A stretch of 64,000 nt of DNA from an uncultured Candidatus Saccharibacteria bacterium (GTDB lineage: Bacteria; Patescibacteriota; Saccharimonadia; Saccharimonadales; CAIOMD01): positions 1,925 through 65,924 of the forward strand of contig CAZMHM010000002.1 in the NCBI GenBank assembly GCA_964566135.1, in the 5' to 3' direction. Numbering within the stretch: position 1 is the first letter of the stretch; each line of letters begins with the position of its first letter. The notes under the pieces were generated by a model. It was given only the letters and a program-made list of their open reading frames with translations. It searched no databases and had not been told where the DNA came from. Shown in pieces: positions 2,838 to 45,083 of this stretch. A program made the translations under genes and the position numbers.

Positions 2838-3251
2838 CTATTTACTATCTTTTTTGGCGCCGTACTTACTGCGACCTTGCTTGCGGTTGTTAACACCTTG
2901 CAAGTCGAGTGAGCCACGTACCACGTGGTAACGAACACCAGGAAGGTCAGGCACACGGCCACCGCGGATTAATACCACAGCGTGCTCTTGTAGGTTGTGA
3001 CCTTCACCACCAATGTAGGCCCATACTTCGTAGCCATTAGTAAGGCGCACACGTGCTACCTTACGCAAAGCTGAGTTAGGCTTTTTTGGAGTCTTGGTTG
3101 TTACCTTTACGCAGACACCACGCTTAAATGGTGCTGGTTTTTCGTAAGCCTTAGTCTTAAGGCTGTTTGTTACGCGCATCAAAGCAGGAGACTTGCTTTT
3201 TACACTTGCTCTCCCACGAGGTTTGCGAACTAATTGATTGATTGTTGGCAT
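2838..3251 (-). CDS. rpsL: 30S ribosomal protein S12
   Basis: [12 protein letters not shown]...[36 protein letters not shown]...[14 protein letters not shown] is a canonical S12 sequence. Confidence 0.97.
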
Positions 3252-3273
3252 ACAGGTTCCTATTTAAACAGAT

Positions 3274-6200
3274 TTATACTTCTTCGTCAAGAAGTTCGTC
3301 GTCATCGACATCTGGCGTGTAGCCAGTGCCAACTGGAATCTTGCGACCCAGGATAACGTTTTCTTTAAGACCATACAGCTGATCGACCTTGCCACTTGTT
3401 GCTGCTGCGATAAGAACACGAGTTGTGTCTTGGAAGCTTGCAGCTGACAAGAAGCTATCAGCCCAGGTTGATACCTTGGTAATTCCGAGTAGTAGCTGGC
3501 TGTATCCTGCTGGCTTTTTGCCTTCTTCTACAAGACGCAAGTTTGCCTCGAATACTGCAGCACGGCTCGCAATATCACCAGTTACAAATTCACTATCACC
3601 AGGTTCTTCGATGGTTACACGGCTAAACATCTGACGCACAACGATTTCGAGGTGCTTATCAGCGATGTTCTGACCTTGGGTTGCGAAAATCTTGCTGATT
3701 TCGTTCATGATGTAGCGCTGAGTATCTTCAACACTCTTAAGACGCATTAAGTCATGAAGGTTAACAGAACCACTCGTAAGACGATCGCCAGCCTTAACGC
3801 TGTCGCCATCTTTAACAAGCAATTGCTTAAAGCCAGGGATTTCGTAACGGACAACCGCTTGGCTCTTTGGCACGATGGTAATTTCGGTTTCTTTAACAGT
3901 TACCTTACCAGCCATGCTTGCTACTAACGGTTCAGCACCCTTTTCACGAGCGGCAAGTACATCACCAATTGATACCTCTTGGCCATCGGTAACACCTGCA
4001 GTGCGACCGAGTAGTGGCAATACTAATGACTGCTCTTCTACGCCGGTTACTTGTACTACATAGTGATCACCTTCTTCCCAAAGGTTAACAGCACCGTCAA
4101 CATCAGAAAGATATGCTTGACCCTTAGGAGTACGAACTTCAAAGAGCTCTTCTACACGGTTAAGACCTTGGGCGGTTTCGTCGGCCATGATTGCGCCGGC
4201 ACGGTGCTTAGAGTCAAGTGAAAGCTGGGTACCAGGCTCACCAATACTCTGTGCAGCAATAACACCAACTGGGTGGCGATTAACCACTAATTGGCCAGTT
4301 GCTGGGTCAACACCATAGCTCTTGCGGCTAATACCACGAACGTTGCCACTTGTTAGTGCGCTCATGATTTTAACGCTTGCAAGGTCGCTCGTTTCAACAT
4401 CAGCTGCGGCTGAGCGAGTGATTAAATCACCCTTAGCAACAAGTGTTTTGCCTGCAACAACAACATCTTCGGCAGCAAAGCGGCCTTCGAGCTTGTGTGC
4501 AAAGGTTACACCAATTTCTTCGGCGTCAGCGCGATAGATAGTGAATCCTGGATCTTCGGCGTCATCTTCTACGGTAAATACATCTTGCGATACATCAACT
4601 AAACGACGTGTTAGGTAGCCAGAGTCAGCGGTCTTCAGGGCGATGTCGATAAGCGCCTTACGAGTACCACGGGTACCGGTAAAGTATTCAAGTGGGCTAA
4701 GACCATGCTTGTAGCCAGCCTTAATTGGGAGTTCGATAGCACGGCCACTGGTGTCAGATACAACACCAAGCATACCAACACTACTCTTCATCTGACCGAT
4801 ATTACCACGAGCACCAGATGTAACGGCGATAGACATAGAATTGTCTTGGCCAGCAAGCTGATCGGCGAGTGTTGTTTGTACACGGCCGTCAACCTTCATC
4901 CAGTTTTCAACAGTCAAGCGATATCGCTCGTCGTTTGTCATAAAACCAGCTTCGTATTGATTGCTGATTTCAGCAGCTCGATCTTCACCTTCTTGGATGA
5001 GACCAGCCATTCCCTTGATATCAGGGAAGTCGTCCATACCCATTGAAAGGCCAGAGATAGTTGCATATTCAAACGCAAGGTCTTTAAGGAAGTCGGCGAT
5101 TTCTGCAGTCTTTTCTTGACCATACTTTTCGTATACTTGGGCCATAACCTTCTGAATTTTCTTCTTGGTCATAGCTTCGTTCTGGTATGGGAAGTCGCTT
5201 GGGAATAACTCGTTGAACAATAGGCGTCCTAGAGTAGTTTCACGCTTTTCGCCACGGAACTGTACCGAAATTGGGCTTTGAAGCTTAATAGTACCTTCTT
5301 CGTAGGCCATTAACGTTTCGTCAATGTCGCTGTAGTTTCGGGTAGCATCTTTTTGGTACTTGTCGTACGTCAAGTAGTAGGTGCCAAGCACGATATCTTG
5401 TTCGATGTGGAGCACCGGTGAACCGTCAGCTGGCTTTAGAATGTTCTTGCTTGCTGCCATGATGTCACGAGCTTCTGCTTGTGCGGCATCTGATAGTGGC
5501 AAGTGAACAGCCATCTGGTCACCGTCAAAGTCAGCGTTAAAACCTTTACAAACTAATGGATGCAGCTGGATAGCCTTACCTTCGATAAGTCGAGGTTGGA
5601 ACGCTTGGATACTTAGGCGGTGCAATGAAGGAGCACGGTTTAATAGCACGTACTTACCCTTAATTACTTCGTCGAGTGCATCCCAAACCGTAATATCACC
5701 AAGCTCGATTAAACGAGTTGCTGAACGGATGTTGTGTGCATGTTCATTAACAATGAGGTGGCCAATAACAAATGGTTTGAATAGTTCAAGCGCCATCATC
5801 TTTGGTAGACCACATTCGTTAATCTTAAGTTCTGGGCCAGCAACAATTACTGAACGGCCAGAGTAGTCAACACGCTTACCTAAAAGGTTTTGGCGGAATC
5901 GACCCTGCTTACCCTTAAGCATGTCAGAAAGACTCTTAAGGCGACGGCGTTGGCCGGTGCTACTTACCGCACGACCGCTACGTGCAGAGTTGTTGTCGAT
6001 GAGTGCATCAACAGCTTCTTGCAGCATACGCATTTCGTTACGGCGGATAACTTCTGGAGCGTTAAGGTCAATGAGCTTCTTAAGACGGTTATTACGGTTA
6101 ATAACACGTCGGTAAAGGTCGTTAAGGTCACTGGTTGCGAAACGGCCGCCAGTAAGCTGCACCATTGGGCGCAAATCTGGAGGAATAACTGGCAACACCG

Positions 6201-31191: not shown

Positions 31192-34100
31192 TTATTTCTT
31201 TACAGTACGCGTACGAGTTGCGATAAACACACCGCCAAGCATGATTGCTGTGATAAACCAGCTTGCTGAAATCGCGCTACCAGAACCAGTGTTAACAAGT
31301 TCGGCTGGTTTTTCGACATTGAGTGTATGCGTATCGGTTGCACATACCTTTATGGCATCGTTCTTTGGCACGTTAATTGCATCAGTATTAATCTTTAAGA
31401 TACTGATTTCAGGGTTTGATTCCTCGAGCTGAGGCTCAAAACCGCAAGACGTTACGGTATTAGTTATCTGCTTGCCTTCGCTACCTGATGGAACAGTGTA
31501 TTTAGCAGTGTATATCCATGTTTCAGTAACATCTAACTTGTTGTCGCTGTTGGTATCACCAGACTGATACACGCCATTACCGGCAATATTATCTGATACA
31601 GCAATGCCTTCAAGTGGCTCGTCGCCAGCATTTGTAACGGTAAACGTATAGGTAACTACATCGCCAACCTTTGCAGTTGTTGGACCTGCTTTAACAACCT
31701 TAATTGCGGGATGAAGCACGTCTAATGTGTGCGTATCGGTTGCGCAAACTTGCGTACCTTCTTCTTCGCTGTAACCATATTCACGACCTTCGTTCCATCG
31801 ATCACCATAGTAATCACCACATGAAGTAACCGTATTTTCGACGTTAGCTACCTGTGGAGCTGGAATTGTGTACTCAACACTGCAGTAGACCCAGTCGCCG
31901 GGATATAGTGACGTAACACCATAACAATCTGCCGTACCAGCAATATCATCAACAACACTCAGATTATCGATATAGGTATCTCCAGAGTTGTATACCCAGA
32001 AGCTATAAGCAACTGTATCCCCTTCGTGAGCTACGTCAGGGCCATATTTGTAAACCTCTAGGCCAGGATTCTGGTTGTCATTATTCGTGATATAACAGGT
32101 TACATTTTCGCCGAGTGCTAGTGTTATAACGTTGCCATCTTGTTCGCCATCATTACACCACCATGTACCTGCAGCATAGCCAGTTGGACCCTGCTCTGAC
32201 AACGCATAGGCAACATTTGCAACAGCAGTTTCTTCGACAACGCCATCTTCGCCATTGCCACTAATAGTGTCTGCACCATCTTCGTCATCAGAAGGAGTTG
32301 CGGTTAATGTCCAATCACTTGGGCTGCTTTCGCCGCTATTGTTATTGATCACCTGCTTCTTCAGGGTAAGCGTTGGTGCGATTGCCGTATTCGTAACTGT
32401 ACAGGTCTTGTCGTCACCTAGTGATATTGTGCCTTCACAATCTTCGGAATACGTAACATTATAGCCATCATGGCTACCTTCGCTTACTTCGTACTCGCCA
32501 ACATTTAGAGTCAATTTCGTACCTGTCTCGCTACCATCAAATTCTTCATCGGATACATTAGTACCGTCGACATACATAGTAAAGTCACTAGCCTCGCCCG
32601 TTCCTCCACTTTTACCGTTTTCAACGTGCTTTATAACCGTTAATTTAGGCTGCACACCAGAATTGGTAATGGTGCAGGTAAAGCTTTGGCCAAGTGCAAT
32701 CGCAAGTGCTGAACTAATTGTTGTAGTCTGCTGAGTTACATTATTGACGCATGACCATTGGCTAGCAGTAAAGCCACTAGGGCCGCCAGTTTCACCAAAT
32801 GTATAGGTATCTGCCTTGAAGTTTGAACCGCTTGTTGCACCAGCAGTGCCGGTAGCACCCGAAAGGTTCGTTGGGTTATTTCCAGTACCGGTTGCTGTTA
32901 GCGTCCAGTTTGATGGATCAACTTTGCTTCCATAGGTTTCGCCAAGCTTTTTAACGAGCGTGAGCGCAGGAGTGTCATCATCATTCACAATCGTACAAAC
33001 AGTAGTTTTTCCATTCGTAAGAGTAATTTTGCTACTAACTACTGTCACGCCATTAGTACATGTCCAGGCACTTGCGGTATAACCACTAGGACCACCTGTT
33101 TCACTAAGTGTATAGGTATCTGCCTTGAAGTTTGAACCGCTTGTTGCACCAGCAGTGCCGGTAGCACCCGAAAGGTTCGTTGGCAAAGCAAGCGTACCCG
33201 TTGCCTTAAGCGTCCAATCAGTTGCATTCGCTGTTCCACCGTTATCCTTGATTAGGCTCTTTACTAACGTAAGCCCCGCAGCTTTGTCGTCATTTGTAAC
33301 AATACACGTTTTCGTTTCTCCAAGTGCAATCGAACCTGAGCAGTCAGCTCCTAAAGATTTGACATACTCATTATCTACAGTTTCATCAACCGTGTATGAA
33401 CCAGGATTTAATGTTACCGTTGTGCCCTGCTCGTCACCTGCAAAACTTGTGTTACTAACATTTGTTCCTGTTACCTTCATGGTAAAGTTTCCAGCAACTT
33501 TAGTGCCGCCGTTATCATTAACGACATGTTTTTTGATAATCAGCTTTGGAGTTACATCGTCATTTGTAATTGTGCAGTTTGTTGTCTGGTTGTGCGAAAC
33601 AACAACGTTGCTACATGTATTGGACGTCATCTGGTACCCACCCGTGTTAGGGTTTACCTCATCAACCGTGTATGTTCCGGTAGGCAAAACAATCGAGTTT
33701 GTACCGTTCCCGTTGAATGTGTACGTCTGGCCATTTACTACGAAACTAAAGTTTCCAGGAGTCTTAGTACCACCATGGTTATTGTGAACAACCTTATTTA
33801 CTACAAGTGTTCCCTTTGTAGCTGAGTTTACAAACTTGCATGAAACGATGTTGTTTGAGGCAATTTGGATACCTGTTACTGCGTTGCCATTCTTTGAACC
33901 ATTATTTGCAGCCCCTGTACAGCTAGCAGATAAAAGAGTGTAGCCAGCTTTTTGGGTCTCATTTACTGAGTACCCCGAAGCAGCGTCAACTTTGACAGCA
34001 GGAGTCTTGCCCTGGGCATCAGTTTGCGAGGCAGCTGGATTAGAGCCACCATTGACATCAAACTCCCAGCCCGCACCGGCAAGAGTCTGATCATTGGTAG

Positions 34101-34890
34101 TATTTGCATTACCATCAGCATCAATGTACTTAGTTGTAGTGACCGTACCGCCACAAGTTTGGCTTGCGAAAGTTGCAAGGCTGGTAGCCAATTGTGCAAA
34201 ATCGGTTGTGATTACATCAGATGTTAGAACATTGCCAGTGTTAGCACTTGGACCAGAGATAGCCTTTAGACGATCAAGTGAACCGCCCGATACCCCAATG
34301 CCCATCGCAAGCATACGAGTTCCGCCGTTCTTGATTGTATTAGCGGCAACAATCGCTGGGTCAAGATGCGCATTTGGTTGACCTGAATCAATCCCACCAA
34401 CTGTGTTGCTAGTCGTTGGATCTCCGTCAGTAGCAAAAATAACAAGGTTTGGGTTTGACGTCCCAGAGGCAAAAGTACTATTTGCCTTAATAAGGCCATC
34501 TTCCCAGTTGGTATAGCCGCCACCAGTAGAGACTGAATCAATTGCATTGTTTGCCGTCGTTACGTCGCTGGTGAAGTTTTGGAGCACTGTTGCACTTGTT
34601 GCGAAACGTGTCACAGAAAACTGCGTAGGAGTGCCGCTCAGCGCATTTGTAAATGCTTTTAGTGCACTTTTGAATGAGTTCATTTCATTAGTGCTAATAC
34701 TTGTAGAATTATCGATAACTATAGCTATATCGAGGCCACACGCTCTTGCAAGTGATGGATTCGCGACGGGAGAAGCAGCATGCGCCGTCCCCGCTAAAGT
34801 CGTCAATGGCCCAAACTGAGCGACCACAAACAGTAAACTTAATAATATCCACCGTGCCCTATTCAATGGGTTCTTTGCTCGCAGCTGCAT
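31192..34890 (-). CDS. Sortase-anchored surface protein: signal peptide, vWA domain, repeated Cna-B/SpaA-like Cys-pair domains, DUF11-like repeats, LVNTG sorting signal
   Basis: Signal peptide ...AGTAHA/AS. vWA MIDAS motif DNSTS at 34699..34713. At least 8 modules of about 90-100 aa end in C-x-(I/V)-(T/V)-N-(D/T/S). Near the C-terminus are VTYTFTVTNAGD-type repeats. The C-terminus reads ELVNTG (31285..31299) plus a hydrophobic helix plus RTRTVKK. The SD is strong (AAAGGAGGCGGTTATG). Confidence 0.87.
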   Translation of the reverse strand: MQLRAKNPLNRARWILLSLLFVVAQFGPLTTLAGTAHAASPVANPSLARACGLDIAIVIDNSTSISTNEMNSFKSALKAFTNALSGTPTQFSVTRFATSATVLQNFTSDVTTANNAIDSVSTGGGYTNWEDGLIKANSTFASGTSNPNLVIFATDGDPTTSNTVGGIDSGQPNAHLDPAIVAANTIKNGGTRMLAMGIGVSGGSLDRLKAISGPSANTGNVLTSDVITTDFAQLATSLATFASQTCGGTVTTTKYIDADGNANTTNDQTLAGAGWEFDVNGGSNPAASQTDAQGKTPAVKVDAASGYSVNETQKAGYTLLSASCTGAANNGSKNGNAVTGIQIASNNIVSCKFVNSATKGTLVVNKVVHNNHGGTKTPGNFSFVVNGQTYTFNGNGTNSIVLPTGTYTVDEVNPNTGGYQMTSNTCSNVVVSHNQTTNCTITNDDVTPKLIIKKHVVNDNGGTKVAGNFTMKVTGTNVSNTSFAGDEQGTTVTLNPGSYTVDETVDNEYVKSLGADCSGSIALGETKTCIVTNDDKAAGLTLVKSLIKDNGGTANATDWTLKATGTLALPTNLSGATGTAGATSGSNFKADTYTLSETGGPSGYTASAWTCTNGVTVVSSKITLTNGKTTVCTIVNDDDTPALTLVKKLGETYGSKVDPSNWTLTATGTGNNPTNLSGATGTAGATSGSNFKADTYTFGETGGPSGFTASQWSCVNNVTQQTTTISSALAIALGQSFTCTITNSGVQPKLTVIKHVENGKSGGTGEASDFTMYVDGTNVSDEEFDGSETGTKLTLNVGEYEVSEGSHDGYNVTYSEDCEGTISLGDDKTCTVTNTAIAPTLTLKKQVINNNSGESSPSDWTLTATPSDDEDGADTISGNGEDGVVEETAVANVAYALSEQGPTGYAAGTWWCNDGEQDGNVITLALGENVTCYITNNDNQNPGLEVYKYGPDVAHEGDTVAYSFWVYNSGDTYIDNLSVVDDIAGTADCYGVTSLYPGDWVYCSVEYTIPAPQVANVENTVTSCGDYYGDRWNEGREYGYSEEEGTQVCATDTHTLDVLHPAIKVVKAGPTTAKVGDVVTYTFTVTNAGDEPLEGIAVSDNIAGNGVYQSGDTNSDNKLDVTETWIYTAKYTVPSGSEGKQITNTVTSCGFEPQLEESNPEISILKINTDAINVPKNDAIKVCATDTHTLNVEKPAELVNTGSGSAISASWFITAIMLGGVFIATRTRTVKK
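32801..32874 (-). repeat. 74-nt perfect intragenic direct repeat, copy 1
   Basis: gtataggtatctgccttgaagtttgaaccgcttgttgcaccagcagtgccggtagcacccgaaaggttcgttgg is identical to 33110..33183. The offset is 309 nt, which is 103 codons and therefore in frame. Confidence 0.95.
33110..33183 (-). repeat. 74-nt perfect intragenic direct repeat, copy 2
   Basis: Identical to 32801..32874. Both copies encode PTNLSGATGTAGATSGSNFKADTYT. Confidence 0.95.
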
Positions 34891-35066
34891 AACCGCCTCC
34901 TTTAAATTGCAAAAAGACAGCCAGCCTATTTTGTCCCTTTTTTTGGGAAGCTAGGCTAGTTGTGTTTTCTATTATTCAAACTCCGCAGAGGAGGTTTCGC
35001 CACTTGCTCCGATTACGCTTGGCGACCAAGATACCGCGTAACCATCAATGCACTCTGTTAAAAATT

Positions 35067-35094
35067 ACTATACTCGCATACATGACATTTGCAA
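35067..35094 (-). promoter_or_regulatory. Putative promoter of the vWA surface-protein gene (TTGCAA-N16-TATAGT)
   Basis: On the minus strand, -35 is at 35094..35089 and -10 at 35072..35067. This predicts a 5' UTR of about 170 nt. Confidence 0.45.
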
Positions 35095-35217
35095 ATACAT
35101 TTTTTTATTTTATAGCTATACCGCTTATGTTAAAGAAAATACTGCATTTTATATACACGAGGTGGCCTGTCATCAACAATGACATCTCAAAATTTAGTAT
35201 TGATACTACGTTCCGGA

Positions 35218-35676
35218 TTACGATAAATACTTCGTGAATCTCTGATTCTTTTTGCCAGATTCGACAATTTCACGCAACATATTTAGTTCGTCACTATCAA
35301 GTTTTGTAAGCCCTTGGGCTAGAAAGTCAATAATGAGATTATCGTTTGGGTCTGCTAACTCTAGTGCCCGCAAGAACACTTTGTTGTAACCTTCTTTGTA
35401 CACTTGGCTTAATAAGGTGGCGAGCTCAATATAATCGTCATTTGGTAATTCTGGCCCTAGGTGGGAAGCAATTATATCTGCAACCTGCTTATCGCCAATA
35501 CAATACATCTGAATATCAAGGTAATGCTCTACTGTCGAATTAACACTATGCACGGCAGCAAGAACTGTGCTAAATCTAGTGTCCATTTCAGAAACCAAAG
35601 CCGAATTCTCTTTTAACCAAGTTTGATGCTGATTAGAGATAGCCTGTTTCTCTGCCTTTGAAAATATCGACTGCAC
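35218..35676 (-). CDS. Hypothetical 152-aa cytoplasmic protein (candidate orphan immunity protein)
   Basis: ORF track entry. Third small gene downstream of the RHS toxin. No signal peptide, acidic and helical. Confidence 0.5.
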   Translation of the reverse strand: MQSIFSKAEKQAISNQHQTWLKENSALVSEMDTRFSTVLAAVHSVNSTVEHYLDIQMYCIGDKQVADIIASHLGPELPNDDYIELATLLSQVYKEGYNKVFLRALELADPNDNLIIDFLAQGLTKLDSDELNMLREIVESGKKNQRFTKYLS

Positions 35677-35700
35677 TTGCGTCTTTCTGGTGGTTATCCT

Positions 35701-36216
35701 TTAGCGAGTCTTGTAGGCAAAAATACTATTGATATCTTTGATTACGTCATTAGCCCGATCTTCAACTTGCGATATTTCCCAACCCTTATTTTTATACGTG
35801 TTTGCAATATCCGCTCTGAGTATATCGCAAGCTTTTTCGTAATTGCCGAAAATCTCGCTTACATAGTGAGAAATCTGTCGTTGATACTCACGGGAAAGAT
35901 TTGCTTGCGCCTGAGCGTAATTGTTGTTTTGAGGGTCATCAAGTGTCTCATAGAACATAGGGTTATTTGCCCACTCGGGGAACGAAGTAATGTCACCTGA
36001 TGCTTCGTGGTGCGACGTAACCCAGTCTTCTGGCACCCAATCATCAATAACTTGCAAATCGGACGCATTAATAGGATACGGATACGTGTCATCAGGACCA
36101 CGCATCACCGCTAGAACCTCTCCGCCCTTCTCATTGGCAATAATTGCCGTAACCAAGTAAAAATGGTTACTTTCTATCGGATATTCCTGCGTTTCATTAG
36201 CCAAGGCTACAATCAT
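35701..36216 (-). CDS. Hypothetical 171-aa cytoplasmic protein (candidate immunity protein)
   Basis: ORF track entry. Second small gene downstream of the RHS toxin. No signal peptide, acidic, Trp/Asp-rich. Confidence 0.5.
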   Translation of the reverse strand: MIVALANETQEYPIESNHFYLVTAIIANEKGGEVLAVMRGPDDTYPYPINASDLQVIDDWVPEDWVTSHHEASGDITSFPEWANNPMFYETLDDPQNNNYAQAQANLSREYQRQISHYVSEIFGNYEKACDILRADIANTYKNKGWEISQVEDRANDVIKDINSIFAYKTR

Positions 36217-36292
36217 TATCTAGTTCTTTCAGAATGGATTTCTTTTAAGTCAGCGAGCATTCTCATTTGATTAATAACAGTGGTGCAACTGG

Positions 36293-36721
36293 CTATATAA
36301 GTGCTTTCTTTAAACTTGAGAATTTTTCAGGAATTGACTCTTTCTCGCCATCAAGAATTCGCTTCATCACCCAAGCCATAGGGAAAATTGTATAACCATC
36401 TTTCAGCACATACGGATAGGTATTACTACCTACTGTTTCGTCATCCTGAAACCAGTCACCATCGATATCATTTTTTCTAAGGAAACTCACGATTACGGCT
36501 GCATTTTTAATTGCAATACTACTCAATAAGAGCTCAGGGTCCCGACTTGCATATATCGAATTAAGTCTGCTGTTCAGGTCAAGCGCTATGGCGTCAATCG
36601 TCACCAGACAGTTTTTGTCAACATTTAGTTCGAAACCGAGGTCGGCAGCCGCCGAGATTGCGTCTCGTATATATTTTTGCTCAAGTTCATGCGGAATATT
36701 GTTCATGGTTGTTAATAGCAT
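36293..36721 (-). CDS. Hypothetical 142-aa protein, probable cognate immunity protein of the RHS C-terminal toxin
   Basis: Its start lies 4 nt after the RHS stop codon, on the same strand, and it has no signal peptide. The assignment is by position only. Confidence 0.55.
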   Translation of the reverse strand: MLLTTMNNIPHELEQKYIRDAISAAADLGFELNVDKNCLVTIDAIALDLNSRLNSIYASRDPELLLSSIAIKNAAVIVSFLRKNDIDGDWFQDDETVGSNTYPYVLKDGYTIFPMAWVMKRILDGEKESIPEKFSSLKKALI

Positions 36722-36725
36722 ACAC

Positions 36726-39700
36726 TTAATACTTTGTAATTGTCAGTAAACCGTTACTAGCTGCGTCTTCAAGAGGGCCCGATAGCCGTGCGTCGGAATT
36801 GATTTTTAAAATAAAGGAGAGGTTATCCCTTTGGCTAATACTAACGTAGTCGCGAATTTGATTGGTATATGTTTGATATTGAACATTCTTAGTCTCGCCA
36901 AGAACTCGAGAATTAAGTGTGTCAGGAACACGATATCTCCCAGGTCGCAATACCGAATCGACCCTCGTTGTATTTTGTACTGTATTTGATCGCACCATAC
37001 CGTCGGCGTACTTTTCAAATGCAGTGGCAACTTTTCCTTCAGCTTCAGAAGCATGGGGAGCTATTTGTGCTGCGGTCGGCGTCGAGAACCAATTTTTTAC
37101 TGCTGTTACAACCTTGCCGCCAGAGCTCAACGCTCTACTGCCAGTTGAAATGATTGCACCAGAGCTTCTTGCAACTAGAGCCGCCGCAGTAATATATGGG
37201 GCACTCGCTGCGATTGCTCCAGCTGCCGCGGCGCAGAATGCAATACACGCCGCTACTGCCGCTACTGCAACAACTACTGCTACGGCCACTACAACAGCCT
37301 TGCCCCACGATGGTAGCCCGTTAAACCATTTCTTGACACTCCACATCCCGTTATAATCCGCATAATTGACTGGGTCTAGTACGTATGAGTAGCTATTCGG
37401 CGTGCCGCCCTCAACAGGGTCTACCTGTAGGAACCTGCCTAGCGTAGGCAAGTATACGCGTGCACCCATTTGGATTATTGGGATGCTAAACATGCTTTCT
37501 GACTTACGGGCAGGGTTTGCCGCCCAGCCCATACCTTCGTTACTTGCATTTGTTGGATTCCCACTAGTGCCAAAAGTTGTCGATGCGATAGGTAAGCCAA
37601 ACGGATCATAAAGGTAAACTGCACTTGTGGCAGTCCCATCTTTGCCAACAGTTATAGCGGTGTCGCCATGGAAATTCTTTATAGAATACGTATCGGTGGT
37701 GTTAATGGTCAGCCCTACACCACCAGGTAACGAAACATACTTATCGGCTATTGCGCACTGATTTTCATCTTGTACGTTGCACGTAAGCATTACACTCGAG
37801 CTATTTCGATATATCTTATCAAGTACGCCGTTTCTGAATTCTTTTTTTACAAGGACACTGCCGCTGACAGTTTTGGTGTACTCGACACGGTTTTGACCTT
37901 GCGTAATCGAGATATTCTGATCGTCAGCAGTGTATCCAAATGAAATCGGCGTACCAGCACCAGCAAGCTCGGTAATATTGCCATGATCGTCATAAACAGG
38001 AGTGCCTATTTGCCCATCGCTCGAACTAATCAGCCTATCGGCGCTATCGTAACAGCTGTTTACCGTCGTGGTGACACTTGTAGTGTTATTTGTCACTGTA
38101 TAGGATGTTCTGTTGCCATTCTTATTGGCGTTGGCATTATAGCCGGTCAAGCTACTACAGCTCGAGTCTTGTGCTCCAAATCCATACTGATACAGCATAT
38201 TATCGACGGATGTACTCGTTAGCCTACCGCCTGTGTCATATCCATAGGTTGCCCCTCCGGTTTTGCCATCAAAGCTATTCGCGTAATTAAGCACTATACC
38301 TGATTGCAATGATGATGTGACAGTTTCATCAAATTGCTTACCATCGCTAAGGCTAAATGTTGCTCCCGAATTCTGTTGCATGGCGTCACGTTTAACCTGG
38401 GTAAGTTTCATGTTTGTTCCGTTGGCCTGCGCCTGCGGATATTCAACATTCAGAATTCGGCCAAATTGATCATAGCTTGTTGACGCATATATCTTTCCGT
38501 CTATCGAGTAACTCGTTGGCCTATCGAGAGAATCATATAGATACGATTCTGAACCTTTTATAGATACGATTGACACAATGTGACCAAAGTTATCGCGATT
38601 GATAGTAGTCTCATATCCAAAACTATCGGTTACCTTGACAGGCCTGCCAAGCAAATCAGATTCACTGATACTCGTGCCCGTAACACTGTCCGTCTGGGCA
38701 GTAATGAGTGGATTACCATTGTGCGCAAAGTTATTACTGATGGTGCGCCCAGGCCTTCCATTAACCGTAGGCGAAACCATCTGAACAATCCGGCCTCTAG
38801 CATCAAGACGGGTACAAGTCCATGCATCGTTATTAAACCTTGTTGCTACTACGCGACCCGAGGCATCATACACCGATTCGCTGGTGCGCGACGTTAATGG
38901 ACCTGCGCCATCAGGGTCAGGCTCAGCCTTACCTTTAGCAAATCCAGCCTGGCTAACGGCAATACTGTTTGCGTCACAAGGGTTAGCAATTACGTCTTCT
39001 GTTGCACGATAATACTGATACGCATAGCTATTTCCGCCAGGTAGGGTCTTGGCTGTTTGGCGCATTAAGCTCCCTGCTTGGTATGGCTCGTAAGCAATTG
39101 AGCTTGTAAGATTTAGCCCGCCAGCGTCAGCAGTGATTGATTTTTCTTGGCCAAGTTCTGGTTGCGAACCATAATCTTTTTTTAGCGTGACATTCGAAGT
39201 TTGACTATCATAGGTCGTTGTCGAGGTTACGAGGTTATATGCCGGCCTCATAACATTCGACCAGAACGGATTGCCCGTAGAAAGATCCAGGCCGCCTCCC
39301 TTTATTCTCATACTAAATGCCATGTAGTCATTACCGACGTTGGCATAGTCATACTTAAACCTATAGGGTTTGTTGGCTTCAAGCGTTATTGCCGCCGAGT
39401 AGCTCATCTTGATAGCAGTCCCCCGGTTTGCCCAGTCATCTATGACAAGTTTATCGTCGATATAAAGTCTGGCGGCATCTTCGTGGTTAATCTGGAAGGT
39501 ATAGCTTGCATTTGCGGGCAATACCAGTACGCCTGTTGCAATAAATCCTACACCAGTTGCGCTAGTTGATTTTGTAATCGGCGCAGCCCGATAGTTTGAA
39601 TCTTGCCAAAACAAGTCCGGCTGCTGGCTGTCAAAGCCAGTCTGGTGATACTTTGAAGCTCCAACAAAGGATCCGCCGTTAGCCGAAGAATAGTCATACC

Positions 39701-42700
39701 ATGCCACTGCAGGGCCCTTAAAACCTTCATCATACTTCGTGCTTGTGCGCGGAACTTTGTTCTCGTTTTCGACAAGTGGTTTTAGGTTCGTCCCAAACCA
39801 TCCACTTGGCGCCGGACCGTATGATTCAATTGGCAAATCATTCGCATCGTAAATGGTCGTTGATTTCAGACCGGTTGGATCCGTAGACGCATACAATAAG
39901 TCTTTTGTGCTATCCCATGTACGGGTAGACACGAGACCATCCTTGGCCATGGTACGAACTGGGCGCAACAATGAATCGTATTCCACTCGTTGTGCGTATC
40001 CGTTCGGCATTGAAGATTTCGTGATAACCCATTTATCGTTTGCATCCTTAGCTGACGTGTAGCCATCAGTCATCTCTGCAAAGCCAACGACCTTTTCTTT
40101 CTCATCGCCTGTCCCTAATAAAGTAGAGTTTGGCACATACCTATATGTATGTATTCCCCTCACTCCTCCACTAGAGGCCGAAGGCATAACTACCTGCTCG
40201 ACACGCCCAATACTGTCGTAGACAAACTGCGTCGTTACGGTGTCGTCATTTGCGCGCACGCCAGCATCTACGACATCATTGGCGGTGCTACCTTTGAGTT
40301 GTACAATTCTTCCGTTGGTGTCATATCCGATATCTTGCCTGATACCACCACTCGTTGCGAGTTGCGATAACCTATAGACTTCCTGGTTATTAATGACTAC
40401 TTTTTTGTACCAGAAATTTGTAAAGTTATTATCGGTAGTCTCTGTCCGACACAACATTCCAGCCGGAGCGCGCACTAAGCCATCAGGAGCATTATTCGGA
40501 GAATTACACTGACTATCGCCGCCATAGTACACACGCAAGTTTCGGCTAATATCTACACCATCAATGATCTTTGTTACGTGAGCCGGCGAGCCACCATATT
40601 CATAACGCAATGCCGCTAGTCGTAAATCATCAGTTGGAGTCGTCACTGTTTTTAGTAAACCATCCGTACCAAAATCATATGTCCTGCCATCACTATCAAG
40701 TAGCACAAAAGTACCGTCTGCATTGCGTGCAAGATAGCCGTATTCGTTTACGGGTGGCTTATATGCGCTGCCCGTCCATGTATACTCATGCGTATCGCCG
40801 TTAGAGTCATAGATTAAGGCGCCAGTTGACGTCGCCTTAAGCCTCTCGTAGGCAATACTACCAGTAGGGTCGATGCCCATCGTCCAGCCTTCTGGCAATG
40901 TATTTGCTCCTGTAGTAAGCCAACTACTTGGTACCGTTTCGCTTCGGGTAGCGTTAAGCCATTTAACATAGAACTGCATGGCTGCACCACTGCCATTCTC
41001 ATAGTAGTCAATCGTAACTTTTCGAGTTGTCCCCTCTGCTAGTCGCAGTAATGCCCCACACTGATTTGCGGTTACGCCCTGATCCCTCCAGTAATCTGCA
41101 TACAGCGCATCGTCAAGATACAACCTAAAGCCATCATCGGCCCCGATACAAAACTGATAATCTGTTGTTTGCGGAACCGTGATATAGCCCGACCATCGAG
41201 TCACGACCCTATCTGCAATTCCCGAGCCTGGCAAGAACTCGCCTGTTCCCCAGTTGAATTGCATAACTTTGTCTTGACGCGTCATAAATGGTGCCCTTGC
41301 TTGAGGAACTGCGAAGCCCTCGCCGTCGTTCAGCTTGTAATAACGACCGGTCAAACCAGCATTAGGTTTAGTTGCTTTCAAGCCAGTGCGTAACCAGTCG
41401 TTTGGAATAACGCGGTCGCTGATAATGACAGCTCCTGAGGTATCTTTAGCCCGAACCCACATCTTTGCCTGTGCGCCGCCACCATATTCAATCATCCATG
41501 CATTAAGTGGAACGGCTTGGCCTTCGACCAAATCAATGCCAACAGTGTCCCCCCAACTACTTCCGGGAGCGGTGTAGTCGAACACAAGCGTTCCGTTAAT
41601 AGCCGCGGACATTTTGTCATCGCGGGTTGAACCAAAATAGTACTTTCCCGTCTTAGGGGCCACGAAATATCCAGTCCAATTAGCCGCAAAGTTATCCGCG
41701 ACAATTGTCCCTGGCTGCGGGCTTGATAGCCCCCAATCAAAGTCAATATTTGCATCAACACGCGTTAGGCCAACTTTTGTAGCATCTCCGCCTGGCGCAT
41801 TGTAATACGTTGCATCAAGCCCTTTTTGACTCATAACAGGCGAATTGTAATCCAAATTTATACCCATCGCCCCGCCAAGCGCATTCATAGTGTTAGAGCC
41901 TACACTAGTCGTAAGGTTACCCGTTACCAAGTTAACTGATGTGCCTGCGACTTCGTCGTATACCTGAGAATTATTTTTACCCGTTCGCAAGTCTACTTTA
42001 AATGGTATTGGTTGTGTCACGTTCCAATAGTCACCACCCCTTGCATAGTGAGTTGTGACATCGGCGTTATCAAATACATAACCGCAGAACCAATACGTCT
42101 GACCATCGTCAAGCACTCCGTCAGGTACAGTCCACTGCGTAGCTGGTACTAATTGCGAATCGACTAAAATGCTAGCCGGATTCCAACAATCTACTGGTTT
42201 CGATGTCATAACCCTAAACCAATATTTAAGTGTATCGCCATTACCGTCACCACTTGCTCCCATTTTAAACGAAGGCTGAGTGCTCGTTAGAATCTGAGGG
42301 TTGCCCGAACTATTGGCAGGTAAGGCAGGCACTATTGGGGTCGGTGCGGTTGGTTGTTTGTTGTAGTCTACGAGATACATATCTACAAAGGTGCCGTATG
42401 GGTCAAGTTGTTTAAAGCTCGTTGTGTTCCATTCTTCGCCATAAATCATTAGCCAACCACCATAGTCACCACGGCTTTGTAGCCATCTAAAGATTGGTGC
42501 AATATCTGCCCATCCATCCGTTGCCATCTGGAATTGGACAACTGGCGCACCGCCTCCGTTATTGTAATTAAACGCAGGTAGCCATGTAACATACATCCAG
42601 CGAGTATCGGTATAGCCTACCCAACTTGCTGTACCAAGGCGCATATTGGTATGTAGCCATGCAGACTCAATGTAGCGACCGTTCGCATCACCGTAAGGGA

Positions 42701-43964
42701 TTTGAAATCCGGTATGCCAAAGTCTCTTACCGGCACCAGCTTGGTTTAATGAACCTGTATACATCCAACAGTTTGCACTAGAACACACGTAGCCGTCAGA
42801 CTTGTAATCGACATAACTATTGCTGTTGTTGTTTACCCCTCTACGCCACGCCCCAAAACTTGGGTCGACTACCACCGGAAAGCTCGTCTTTGGCAAAGAG
42901 CTCAACCAGCTTGGCAGAACTTGTACCACAAAGAAACCGTTTTTGTAGGTGACTTTGATTGGTGGATTACTCATCGGGCCCTCACCCCAAACACTAACCG
43001 TAAAAGGGGCGATGTTGATTTTCGAATCTTTAACCGCCCAATAACCGTCACCTGCATCTACAAGCTCGCCTCCAAGAACCTTAAACATATATGTGTTTGC
43101 AGCCGAAGCATTCTTTATAACAATTGATTCTTTGATTGATTCCGGGCTGATATCGTACTGCAAATCAATGCCATTCCAGGCATCTTTATATGCAATGTAG
43201 TTCCGCCCCTTATCTGTAACTTCTTTAGGGATTACTTTGTCTGATGTACCAATTGGCACAAAACGCACGCTTTTTACTCCGTCACTCACAAGCATACCGT
43301 CACCATCCATGAGCGTCTGCAGTTGTACAGACAGCTCGGATGTTTTTGCATTTAGCGCGGTAGGTTGCGAAGAACCAGGGAGTATTTTTTGCAGGATACT
43401 TTCGCTTTGCTTACGATTTTTGGCGTAGTTTGTATCACTACTTGTCGAGTTATCATGTTTTTGCCAGCCTGATGACGTCTTATCATTTGTAGATGTCGCA
43501 CCAATCCGTTTTGCCAGTGTACCGTCGGCTAACGTCTGCTGGTTTGTCTTTGCATCGACAGCTTCCAGTTTACCTGTGTCAATTTTCCTCGCAGATTTTT
43601 GGTGCTCTGAAGTAATGCTTTTGCCAACATCAGAAGGATTAATAGTATCTTCTTGTTTTGCACTCTCTGGAATACTACTCATATCAGCGGCCTGCGTTAT
43701 TTTCTGGTCTTGGGCAGATTTTTGGCTGGCAGATAAAGGCTTTGATTTCCCGTTTTCGGCAACCGCCTTATTAACATTCGTAGCAATAGGTAGCAAGAAC
43801 GATGCTACAAATGCAACAATAAAAAACAGCGCCATGAGACGCTGTTTTTGGGAGTTAACCTTTGAAAGAGGGCGCGAAAAAGCGCCTGTCGCCGCGATAA
43901 ATAGTGGACGTTTTGGACTTTTTGCGGTGTTTGTGTGGATGCGCTTCAAATGCAAATATGGCAT
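36726..43964 (-). CDS. RHS/YD-repeat polymorphic toxin (WapA-like): signal/TM, N-terminal beta-rich region, 3 PA14 domains, YD-repeat shell, RHS core motif, hydrophobic linker, PD-ExK nuclease-like C-terminus
   Basis: 2412 aa. The N-terminal hydrophobic segment is MALFFIVAFVASFLLPIATNVNKAVA. PA14-like blocks lie at about aa 715-845 (41430..41822), 869-1003 (40956..41360) and 1415-1560 (39285..39722), each with YY...F.W...P...F..RWTG-type patterns. There are many YD repeats (YEYGG, IGYDTNGR, FVYDSIGR, VEYDSLLR, YGYDTGGR...). The RHS core end reads GARVYLPTLGRFLQVDPVEGG..NSYSYVLDPVNYADYNGMW. A 204-aa C-terminal module follows. Confidence 0.92.
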   Translation of the reverse strand: MPYLHLKRIHTNTAKSPKRPLFIAATGAFSRPLSKVNSQKQRLMALFFIVAFVASFLLPIATNVNKAVAENGKSKPLSASQKSAQDQKITQAADMSSIPESAKQEDTINPSDVGKSITSEHQKSARKIDTGKLEAVDAKTNQQTLADGTLAKRIGATSTNDKTSSGWQKHDNSTSSDTNYAKNRKQSESILQKILPGSSQPTALNAKTSELSVQLQTLMDGDGMLVSDGVKSVRFVPIGTSDKVIPKEVTDKGRNYIAYKDAWNGIDLQYDISPESIKESIVIKNASAANTYMFKVLGGELVDAGDGYWAVKDSKINIAPFTVSVWGEGPMSNPPIKVTYKNGFFVVQVLPSWLSSLPKTSFPVVVDPSFGAWRRGVNNNSNSYVDYKSDGYVCSSANCWMYTGSLNQAGAGKRLWHTGFQIPYGDANGRYIESAWLHTNMRLGTASWVGYTDTRWMYVTWLPAFNYNNGGGAPVVQFQMATDGWADIAPIFRWLQSRGDYGGWLMIYGEEWNTTSFKQLDPYGTFVDMYLVDYNKQPTAPTPIVPALPANSSGNPQILTSTQPSFKMGASGDGNGDTLKYWFRVMTSKPVDCWNPASILVDSQLVPATQWTVPDGVLDDGQTYWFCGYVFDNADVTTHYARGGDYWNVTQPIPFKVDLRTGKNNSQVYDEVAGTSVNLVTGNLTTSVGSNTMNALGGAMGINLDYNSPVMSQKGLDATYYNAPGGDATKVGLTRVDANIDFDWGLSSPQPGTIVADNFAANWTGYFVAPKTGKYYFGSTRDDKMSAAINGTLVFDYTAPGSSWGDTVGIDLVEGQAVPLNAWMIEYGGGAQAKMWVRAKDTSGAVIISDRVIPNDWLRTGLKATKPNAGLTGRYYKLNDGEGFAVPQARAPFMTRQDKVMQFNWGTGEFLPGSGIADRVVTRWSGYITVPQTTDYQFCIGADDGFRLYLDDALYADYWRDQGVTANQCGALLRLAEGTTRKVTIDYYENGSGAAMQFYVKWLNATRSETVPSSWLTTGANTLPEGWTMGIDPTGSIAYERLKATSTGALIYDSNGDTHEYTWTGSAYKPPVNEYGYLARNADGTFVLLDSDGRTYDFGTDGLLKTVTTPTDDLRLAALRYEYGGSPAHVTKIIDGVDISRNLRVYYGGDSQCNSPNNAPDGLVRAPAGMLCRTETTDNNFTNFWYKKVVINNQEVYRLSQLATSGGIRQDIGYDTNGRIVQLKGSTANDVVDAGVRANDDTVTTQFVYDSIGRVEQVVMPSASSGGVRGIHTYRYVPNSTLLGTGDEKEKVVGFAEMTDGYTSAKDANDKWVITKSSMPNGYAQRVEYDSLLRPVRTMAKDGLVSTRTWDSTKDLLYASTDPTGLKSTTIYDANDLPIESYGPAPSGWFGTNLKPLVENENKVPRTSTKYDEGFKGPAVAWYDYSSANGGSFVGASKYHQTGFDSQQPDLFWQDSNYRAAPITKSTSATGVGFIATGVLVLPANASYTFQINHEDAARLYIDDKLVIDDWANRGTAIKMSYSAAITLEANKPYRFKYDYANVGNDYMAFSMRIKGGGLDLSTGNPFWSNVMRPAYNLVTSTTTYDSQTSNVTLKKDYGSQPELGQEKSITADAGGLNLTSSIAYEPYQAGSLMRQTAKTLPGGNSYAYQYYRATEDVIANPCDANSIAVSQAGFAKGKAEPDPDGAGPLTSRTSESVYDASGRVVATRFNNDAWTCTRLDARGRIVQMVSPTVNGRPGRTISNNFAHNGNPLITAQTDSVTGTSISESDLLGRPVKVTDSFGYETTINRDNFGHIVSIVSIKGSESYLYDSLDRPTSYSIDGKIYASTSYDQFGRILNVEYPQAQANGTNMKLTQVKRDAMQQNSGATFSLSDGKQFDETVTSSLQSGIVLNYANSFDGKTGGATYGYDTGGRLTSTSVDNMLYQYGFGAQDSSCSSLTGYNANANKNGNRTSYTVTNNTTSVTTTVNSCYDSADRLISSSDGQIGTPVYDDHGNITELAGAGTPISFGYTADDQNISITQGQNRVEYTKTVSGSVLVKKEFRNGVLDKIYRNSSSVMLTCNVQDENQCAIADKYVSLPGGVGLTINTTDTYSIKNFHGDTAITVGKDGTATSAVYLYDPFGLPIASTTFGTSGNPTNASNEGMGWAANPARKSESMFSIPIIQMGARVYLPTLGRFLQVDPVEGGTPNSYSYVLDPVNYADYNGMWSVKKWFNGLPSWGKAVVVAVAVVVAVAAVAACIAFCAAAAGAIAASAPYITAAALVARSSGAIISTGSRALSSGGKVVTAVKNWFSTPTAAQIAPHASEAEGKVATAFEKYADGMVRSNTVQNTTRVDSVLRPGRYRVPDTLNSRVLGETKNVQYQTYTNQIRDYVSISQRDNLSFILKINSDARLSGPLEDAASNGLLTITKY

Positions 43965-44123: not shown

Positions 44124-45083
44124 TTATTTGATGTTATCAAGACGGCTATCAAGGCTCTTTGCAAGCCCCTGTTGCTGTACGGCAAGATTGTTTCGTTGTT
44201 CTACTATTTTGTTGTATTCGTCTATAAGCACCTTAACGTTGGCAACCTCTGCATTGTAGGCGCTAACAGATGCGTTATACGATGAAACTTGTGCATTATA
44301 TGCTTTGGTTTGTCCGGAACGTAGTTGAGTATCCATCTGCAGTTTTTGGGCTTCGAGCTGCTTTCCCTTAGCATCTAAGGCCGCTTCTCGCTGCGTAATT
44401 TCCGCCTTGCGGAGCGTCAAATCTGCATCGTATTTTGCAACCTGCGTATTAATGTCTTCAAAAACTTTTTTGTAGCTATTCGAGAGTGCCACAACCTTGC
44501 CCCTATCGGTGAAGTATTTCGCATAGTACGCCTCAAGCTCGGGGCCTAAGTTTGCGTATTCGGTACCGAGTATCGAGTGTAGCTCGTTAGCTTCTTCGCC
44601 AGGTTCTGTCTTTTGATAGCTTGCCATTACCTCAGTTAAGTGAGGATCATTCACACGCTTATAGGCGTCCTGCACAAGTGCGTCAATCCGCTGCTTATCT
44701 TTTTTCGATAACCGTTGATAGGCGGCATGGAGCATCTCGTGAGCGGCGGTAACTTCTTCTACACCATTCAATTTTGCGTCTTCAACTTTAAAAACGTAAA
44801 TATTTGTGCCGGTATAGCACCCGAGTACAATGGTCTGTTCTGTTGTTTTGCATTCCGAATTAAATGTTTGCCTGTCGGATATCTGCGGTTCGTTAACATA
44901 AAAAAGTCGTTTGCCGTAATCATTCATGCCACTGTTGTTTGATAGTTCGGCAACAGCCACTGGCGCAGTATAGTTGCGCAACCGCGACCAGTCATAGATA
45001 TTAAACCGATTACTCCACACTAAACCTGCAATAGCTAGGATTGCAATCAACGCAAACAGTGATCCGAGTGTCTTTTTTGACAT
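44124..45083 (-). CDS. Membrane-anchored protein with HExxH motif and C-terminal coiled coil (putative metallopeptidase)
   Basis: N-terminal TM segment (LGSLFALIAILAIAGLVW). It contains HEMLH and a Cys pair (CKTTEQTIVLGC). The C-terminal 110 aa are heptad-like and rich in Gln/Ala/Lys. Confidence 0.6.
   Translation of the reverse strand: MSKKTLGSLFALIAILAIAGLVWSNRFNIYDWSRLRNYTAPVAVAELSNNSGMNDYGKRLFYVNEPQISDRQTFNSECKTTEQTIVLGCYTGTNIYVFKVEDAKLNGVEEVTAAHEMLHAAYQRLSKKDKQRIDALVQDAYKRVNDPHLTEVMASYQKTEPGEEANELHSILGTEYANLGPELEAYYAKYFTDRGKVVALSNSYKKVFEDINTQVAKYDADLTLRKAEITQREAALDAKGKQLEAQKLQMDTQLRSGQTKAYNAQVSSYNASVSAYNAEVANVKVLIDEYNKIVEQRNNLAVQQQGLAKSLDSRLDNIK

Follow-up and report, generated by a model that had tools for sequence, protein, structure and literature searches.

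Why should the gene of a 2412-aa toxin be followed by three small genes and not by one? The question is raised by a 64,000-nt stretch of contig CAZMHM010000002.1, from an uncultured Candidatus Saccharibacteria bacterium (the whole stretch is called the window here), in which open reading frames (ORFs) of 142, 171 and 152 aa, here ORF1, ORF2 and ORF3, lie behind an RHS polymorphic toxin gene. An earlier reading made from the letters alone (the sequence-only reading) had proposed that the first of them is the cognate immunity gene and that the other two are orphans, or else that the three encode subunits of one multi-protein immunity complex. Our analysis points to the former: most probably a polymorphic-toxin gene has a short array of immunity genes attached to it here, in which ORF1 would be the cognate gene and ORF2 and ORF3 spare ones.

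The toxin gene and the three ORFs behind it

The toxin gene (36726..43964, minus strand; recognised as an ORF with Pfam and NCBIfam domains) encodes three PA14 domains, a GLEYA domain, RHS_repeat and a C-terminal Tox-REase-7 domain (all Pfam), and the N-terminus of the protein is a hydrophobic signal or anchor of the Sec type. The NCBIfam Rhs_assc_core domain (RHS repeat-associated core domain; E 1.5e-11) precedes the tip, which matches Pfam Tox-REase-7 at E 2e-12 when the last 324 residues serve as the query. The nuclease domain itself (36771..36974, minus strand; PF15649, residues 2331-2398, E 3e-11 to 2e-12), which is of the PD-(D/E)xK kind and which we call type A, has intact RVPD and GETKNVQYQ motifs, and the last 130 residues of the toxin are basic (pI 9.47).

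ORF1 (36293..36721) starts with ATG 4 nt past the RHS stop codon, on the same, minus strand, and is followed on that strand by ORF2 (35701..36216), also with an ATG start, and ORF3 (35218..35676), with a GTG start; the gaps between the genes, read from the sequence, are 4, 76 and 24 nt. All three predicted proteins are acidic (pI 4.73, 4.38 and 4.90, respectively), just as the sequence-only reading had described them. The pairing of an acidic ORF1 (pI 4.7) with a basic tip (pI 9.5) is only suggestive. That reading had also reported no signal peptide, no familiar motif and no intervening fragment of a toxin tip, and each of these statements stands: none of the three translations has a hydrophobic N-terminus, none of the ORFs finds a match in Pfam (at E up to 1), NCBIfam or PADLOC, and tblastn detected no toxin-tip remnant between or after the three ORFs, nor downstream of the RHS stop codon. 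There is no terminator-like site on the coding (minus) strand between the three ORFs, and the RHS gene and the array are probably co-transcribed. Looking for repeats or recombination sites around the cassette yielded short repeats at chance level only. The G+C content is 0.38-0.43 over positions 35000-36750, as against 0.45-0.50 on the flanks.

Immunity families track the subtype of the nuclease tip

Homologues of ORF1 and of ORF3 are found behind two different subtypes of the Tox-REase-7 tip. Two ORF1-family genes, P0011 and P0013 (in loci L007 and L016), start at, or 3-4 nt past, the stop codons of Tox-REase-7 tips whose nuclease domains are 57-59% identical to that of the window, and these together make up type A, with the ORF1 family as partner. 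The ORF3 family partners the other subtype, type B. On the 2.4-kb contig L001, which comes from a different sample, a gene whose product is 93% identical to ORF3 (P0004) overlaps the stop codon of a type B tip (E 1e-16 against Pfam Tox-REase-7), and in L011 the ORF3 homologue P0052 lies 4 nt behind another, type B-like Tox-REase-7 tip. The nuclease domains of the L001 and L011 tips are 55% identical to each other, while identity between types A and B is 36-46%. The immunity family thus tracks the tip subtype, which is the signature expected of cognate pairs, and ORF1 is accordingly placed as the predicted cognate immunity gene of the type A nuclease.

For ORF3 the comparison with L001 is of particular use. 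In that contig the start of a surface-protein gene comes next after P0004, the same gene as the one behind ORF3 in the window, and the DNA of the two is ~93% identical up to ~80 nt into this gene, covering the signal peptide, after which the proteins diverge. The shared start of the downstream gene shows that L001 and the window are one chromosomal locus sampled in sibling strains. No type B tip is present within the 64-kb window, which would leave ORF3 orphaned; it is predicted to be an orphan immunity gene directed against the type B tip that the sibling strain bears at this very locus.

Three unrelated families outside the catalogues

Word-indexed homology searches with each ORF against 5.8 billion clusters returned only the protein itself or proteins at least 93% identical to it. 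The families emerged only when the three proteins, joined into a single query, were run exhaustively with HMMER against 1.84 billion representatives. This gave ~45 distant homologues of ORF1 (26-37% identity, most of them 125-150 aa long, best E 1e-15), ~20 homologues of ORF2 (E down to 3e-8), which share the motif SFPEWA.DP.FY, and one distant homologue of ORF3, P0052 (E 3e-5; 28% identity over 138 residues by BLASTP). Paralogy among the three was considered and rejected, as both pairwise BLASTP and profile-profile comparison show unrelated families. Neither the three ORFs (Pfam, E up to 1) nor their family members match the Imm23, Imm54 or ImmHEAT profiles, and comparing the family profiles with PDB sequences produced low-complexity or helical noise only. 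DUF6278 was likewise set aside as a name for ORF1: two of 48 family members match it weakly (best E ~1e-3), below the gathering threshold, and ORF1 itself does not. Searching with the tip alignment instead, a scan of a genome collection, one that does not include the source genome, found only two distant REase-7 loci, L005 and L006, with unrelated genes behind the tip, and a first metagenome scan had no match; a scan of viral contigs for the ORF1 family had none either. The three immunity families, and the family of tips that partners ORF2 (see below), appear to be uncatalogued in Pfam, NCBIfam and PADLOC.

AlphaFold2 models built on the family alignments are confident for ORF1 (pLDDT 95.8, pTM 0.90; an α+β fold) and for ORF2 (pLDDT 90.9, pTM 0.83; an SH3-like barrel at the N-terminus, with the C-terminal half helical), and Foldseek found no significant match in the PDB for either. 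The best match of ORF1 was 3hlz_A (E 0.08, TMq 0.53), a Bacteroides protein with the locus tag BT_1490, a tag that appears in papers on B12 uptake, and with an N-terminal domain resembling Tsi3; ORF1 being mostly helical, we treated this match as uninformative. The matches of ORF2 were limited to small barrels (Tudor, PWWP or SH3) and to its N-terminal half. Between strains, ORF3 has 15 synonymous and 6 non-synonymous changes (pN/pS 0.11, against L001) and ORF2 has three of each (pN/pS 0.26), showing that both are under purifying selection. Taken together, the homologues, the confident models of ORF1 and ORF2 and the low pN/pS of ORF2 and ORF3 indicate that the three ORFs are real genes and not chance reading frames.

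Some members of the ORF1 family differ from ORF1 in layout. Among P0039, P0044, P0049, P0063, P0065, P0076, P0033 and P0022 (alignment A3), some have a hydrophobic segment at the N-terminus, suggesting membrane-anchored versions, and others have extra domains (for example P0033, of 350 aa, and P0022, of 222 aa).

The ORF2 family follows tips of another kind

The ORF2 family keeps different company. One member, P0034, lies in L009/L010 and overlaps the stop codon of the gene for a protein of 2391 aa that has the same PA14/GLEYA/RHS architecture as the RHS protein of the window, and a tip that is not REase-7. Further loci came from a metagenome scan with the SFPEWA motif, bringing to eight those in which an ORF2-family gene stands directly behind a large, RHS-type ORF (L009/L010, L022, L023, L024, L026, L028, L029 and L030/31). 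At one extreme of the ORF2-family loci the gene overlaps the upstream large ORF by 4 nt, and at the other a gap of 58 nt separates the two; in all of the eight apart from L009/L010 the upstream ORF runs off the contig. RHS repeats were found upstream of the ORF2-family gene in L009 and L029, and the upstream ORF of L027, where the ORF2-family gene comes second, has them too.

One family accounts for six of the upstream tips, which share the order of motifs …LxEQ…AK.G.G…LGD…W.K…VHY…(D/E)FKFK in the C-terminal ~90 aa of the ORFs at L023 1-453, L024 3-683, L026 3-827, L028 3-3920, L029 3-3818 and L030 3-3836. We call these FKFK-type tips; each is followed by an ORF2-family gene. Two further tips, those of L009 (229-5001) and L022 (2-679), are possibly related: the two are 43% identical, make up a group of their own and have a similar motif order, but the HMM places them at E ~1 with respect to the FKFK family, and we claim no link. 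The ORF2-partner tips have no Pfam match even at E 10, and one FKFK-type tip that was compared with PDB sequences had no match there. The FKFK-type tips probably constitute an unannotated toxin family. No tip of this type is present within the 64-kb window, and on the strength of these genomic contexts ORF2 is predicted to be an orphan immunity protein against a class of tips other than REase-7.

Since the partner tips of ORF2 and ORF3 are of another class and another subtype, respectively, and are absent from the window, both would count as orphan immunity genes, and the order that the sequence-only reading had proposed, with the cognate gene first and orphans after it, is supported by the contexts of the homologues and by the co-variation with tip subtype. 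Relatives of these genes do stand beside different RHS C-termini, which that reading had thought worth looking for in related genomes, with the ORF3 family beside type B tips and the ORF2 family beside non-REase-7 tips; the homologues do not occur mainly outside toxin loci.

It could be argued that ORF2, ORF3 or both are not orphans, their cognate toxins being encoded elsewhere in the same genome. Bacteria often have several polymorphic toxin loci, and our tip search covered the 64-kb window of a 154.7-kb contig. Against this, cognate pairs are directly adjacent in all informative relatives, whereas the window holds neither a type B nor an FKFK-type tip, and the type B tip of L001 occupies this very locus, which argues that here it was replaced rather than moved. 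We therefore regard distant cognate toxins as rather improbable.

A proposed in-place replacement of the toxin tip

The content of the locus varies among close strains. L001 has a type B tip and then the ORF3 allele only, and L002-L004, a lineage 97% identical to the window and sampled from sewage, have a frameshifted ORF3 behind linked ORF1 and ORF2. Comparison of the window with L001 allows the limits of the exchanged segment to be mapped. Upstream of it, DNA similarity between the two is confined to a conserved 62-nt linker (37042..37103, minus strand; …AVKNWFSTPTAAQIAPHASEA), which is 77% identical by blastn, is also visible in the protein alignment and encodes WFSTPTAAQI. As the sole upstream similarity to L001, this linker is the putative left junction. 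Similarity resumes ~27 nt inside ORF3, and the first ~9 codons of ORF3 (35650..35676, minus strand), which are unlike the L001 allele, mark the putative right recombination junction.

These junctions suggest a simple course of events. A segment of ~1.4 kb comprising the type A nuclease, ORF1 and ORF2 would have replaced the coding region of the type B nuclease, through one crossover in the conserved linker and another ~27 nt inside ORF3. The old immunity gene would have been kept, and the old tip deleted instead of being displaced downstream; a tip swapped in place, as the junctions imply, would explain why no orphan tip fragments are seen. Retention of ORF3 would be favoured for as long as neighbours still deploy type B.

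The lineage of L002-L004 shows a different fate of the same gene. Its three contigs share a 1-nt deletion in ORF3 (L002 806-949, corresponding to about position 35515 of the window), which leads to a premature stop after 47 codons; ORF2 is intact, and so is ORF1 over its last 62 codons, the part present on those contigs. Here a spare immunity gene is being lost. Measured against L002, synonymous divergence is about five times higher in ORF3 (pS 0.14) than in ORF2 (pS 0.03), and several ORF3 variants are common to L002 and L001, which suggests a mosaic or recombinant history within the immunity array.

A frameshifted relative raises the possibility that ORF3 of the window, too, is a decaying remnant of the replacement and no longer functions. 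Its original ATG and first ~9 codons have been replaced, leaving the GTG start, and one source annotation (P0005) has only a 122-aa form beginning at M31. However, P0004 and P0052 align with ORF3 from about residue 8, which favours the 152-aa form, the frame is intact over all 152 codons, the C-terminal ~100 residues are identical to those of the L001 protein, and the pN/pS given above for that comparison is low. On balance we consider it unlikely that ORF3 is a mere relic, and continue with the reading of ORF3 as a spare immunity gene.

Orphan genes or subunits of a complex

If the three proteins were subunits of a single complex acting against the REase-7 tip of the window, as the sequence-only reading had offered as its alternative, their families would be expected to travel together. 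Within the window's own lineage they do: the genes are adjacent and on one strand, with short gaps and no terminator-like site, and the linkage of ORF1 and ORF2 is kept in L002-L004. Elsewhere the three families do not occur as a set, the nearest case being a mixed array in L013 in which the members are non-adjacent (co-occurrence was judged from HMM searches of loci L001-L033, and for L034 from its gene list and Pfam matches). ORF1-family genes occur in L007 and L034 with no ORF2- or ORF3-family neighbour, ORF2-family genes stand alone behind toxins in the eight loci described above, and the L001 allele of ORF3 is alone behind its tip. Moreover, no sequence or profile similarity links the three families, and ORF3 is frameshifted in L002-L004 while ORF2 and the covered part of ORF1 are intact. 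Families that do not travel as a set, together with the loss of ORF3 in that lineage, make a multi-subunit complex very unlikely, and this part of the earlier proposal is not supported.

Members of the ORF1 and ORF2 families are also found in positions removed from a cognate tip. They occur as the second or a later gene behind other toxins in L008 (which has a Colicin-E5-like tip), L027 and L034, and ORF2-family paralogues form arrays in L017, L029 and L013. Two arrays are toxin-less: that of L013, with one ORF1-family, two ORF2-family, one Imm33-like and one DUF4265 gene on the same strand, and that of L017, downstream of uvrB, with two clear ORF2-family paralogues and one weak match. The L017 array (3214-6124, seen also in L018-L020) consists of six small same-strand genes between uvrB and a gene for a glycogen-branching-type enzyme.

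That the ORFs are not immunity genes at all, but unrelated small cytoplasmic proteins or accessories in the secretion or stabilisation of the RHS protein, fits the lack of a named immunity family and of a significant fold match, yet deserves hardly any credence given homologues recurrently tight behind toxin tips with start-stop overlaps, a family that co-varies with tip subtype, arrays with Imm33-like genes and tandem paralogues (typical of immunity genes, not of accessories) and the absence of any PADLOC match.

The attached immunity array with a cognate ORF1 and spare ORF2 and ORF3 is thus the reading that we prefer. In mechanistic terms, the exported RHS protein would deliver a C-terminal tip of ~200 residues, made up of a hydrophobic segment, the linker and the basic Tox-REase-7 nuclease; ORF1 would bind the type A nuclease and keep it inactive in sibling cells as well as in the producer, and ORF2 and ORF3 would protect against toxins fired by non-identical neighbours. 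More tentative, and in our estimate a little short of an even chance, is the fuller account in which all of the following hold together: ORF1 and ORF2 represent undescribed immunity families, the partner of ORF2 is an unannotated tip family, and in-place replacement of the tip kept the prior immunity gene.

Several points weigh against these interpretations. The ORF3 family has been seen in only two other contexts, in one of which the distant homologue P0052 reaches just E 3e-5. With its GTG start and replaced N-terminus, the expression of ORF3 in the window strain is uncertain. No significant relationship ties the L009 and L022 tips to the FKFK group, so that members of the ORF2 family may have partners in more than one toxin family. 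A type B or FKFK-type tip elsewhere in the genome could mean that ORF2 or ORF3 is not strictly orphan. Finally, the replacement may have run either way, with the window derived from an L001-like ancestor or the reverse.

Other features of the locus

The translation of the toxin gene shows a hydrophobic stretch of ~46 residues (37170..37307, minus strand; WGKAVVVAVAVVVAVAAVAACIAFCAAAAGAIAASAPYITAAALVA), located past the end of the RHS core (DPVEGG...LDPVNYADYNG) and ahead of the nuclease. Ala, Val and Ile abound in it, and its length would suffice for about two membrane helices; similar stretches follow the RHS core in L009, L022, L027 and L029. This stretch may serve the released tip as a module for membrane entry or anchoring.

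Directly upstream of the RHS gene and on the same strand is an ORF of 319 aa (44124-45083, minus strand) with no Pfam match, which may or may not serve the toxin system as an accessory. Neighbours of the RHS gene include a sortase gene and a pilin-like gene, and no type VI secretion system (T6SS) gene was found among the neighbours scanned. On the other side of the array, the surface protein downstream of ORF3 (31192-34890, minus strand) is sortase-associated and has VWA, SpaA-like and DUF7507 domains. Compared with its counterpart in L001 (1272-2429), it shares the first ~30 residues, the signal peptide, and has a wholly different mature part, so that a second strain-variable surface gene abuts the toxin locus.

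Significance and comparison with known systems

If the fuller, more tentative account is correct, strains of this probably Saccharibacteria-like lineage accumulate a record of the toxins currently used by their relatives, and do so without orphan tip fragments. Three pairings are open to direct testing, namely ORF1 with the type A REase-7 tip, ORF3 with the type B REase-7 tip and ORF2 with the FKFK-type tips, the last of which points to a toxin-tip family that has no Pfam model. The locus would also offer a natural example of tip replacement with the prior immunity gene retained: environmental strains represent both states (the window and L001), and the spare gene is being lost in a third lineage (L002-L004). 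Should the host be an episymbiont of the Saccharibacteria type, strain-level toxin warfare would be documented here in a poorly studied group.

In Rhs and contact-dependent inhibition (CDI) systems, a variable C-terminal tip is followed by its immunity gene and then by extra immunity genes for other tips, an arrangement that evolves by recombination, and in classical Rhs arrays a displaced tip fragment precedes each orphan immunity gene. The window differs in having no tip fragments. The classical form is seen instead in L007 (3-2793), where a 5'-cut gene with a weak Colicin_M-like match is followed by a 126-aa gene, a gap of 262 nt and then a stand-alone Tox-REase-7 tip of 191 aa, the ORF1-family gene and another two small genes.

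Immunity genes that lack a cognate effector in their own strain have precedents: papers on the Serratia Rhs NADase (PMC10539506) and on acquired interbacterial defence in Bacteroidales (PMC10470768, PMC12247911) propose or show that such genes give protection from non-self effectors. Those systems are T6SS-linked and Gram-negative, whereas the RHS protein of the window has a Sec-type N-terminus and sortase and pilin-like neighbours. Closely similar in architecture to the 2412-aa protein is a 2487-aa toxin with RHS/YD repeats and PA14, encoded with an adjacent immunity gene in a Saccharibacteria genome (Starr et al. 2018, PMC6031116); that paper describes neither the tip family nor extra immunity genes. 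The domain layout of the toxin and its sortase and pilin-like neighbours would fit an organism of that kind. As for the nuclease, the partners known for Tox-REase-7 are ImmHEAT, Imm23 and Imm54 (Zhang et al. 2012, PMC3482391), so that the toxin domain family is shared with those pairs while ORF1 and ORF3 match none of the three.

The nearest likeness is to polyimmunity loci, in which unrelated immunity families stand in tandem and in the same orientation, with short spacers, no toxin cassettes and a content that varies among strains, and which are inferred to give pre-emptive protection against the toxins of non-kin (Zhang et al. 2012, PMC3482391). The array in the window shares the tandem unrelated genes, the short gaps, the absence of cassettes and the strain variation. 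It differs in having only three genes, whose families lie outside the Imm families that can be searched with Pfam, and in being attached to a full-length toxin gene, a position that identifies its first member as the predicted cognate immunity gene. The arrangement as such is ordinary for polymorphic toxins, and the new part is the families of which it is made.

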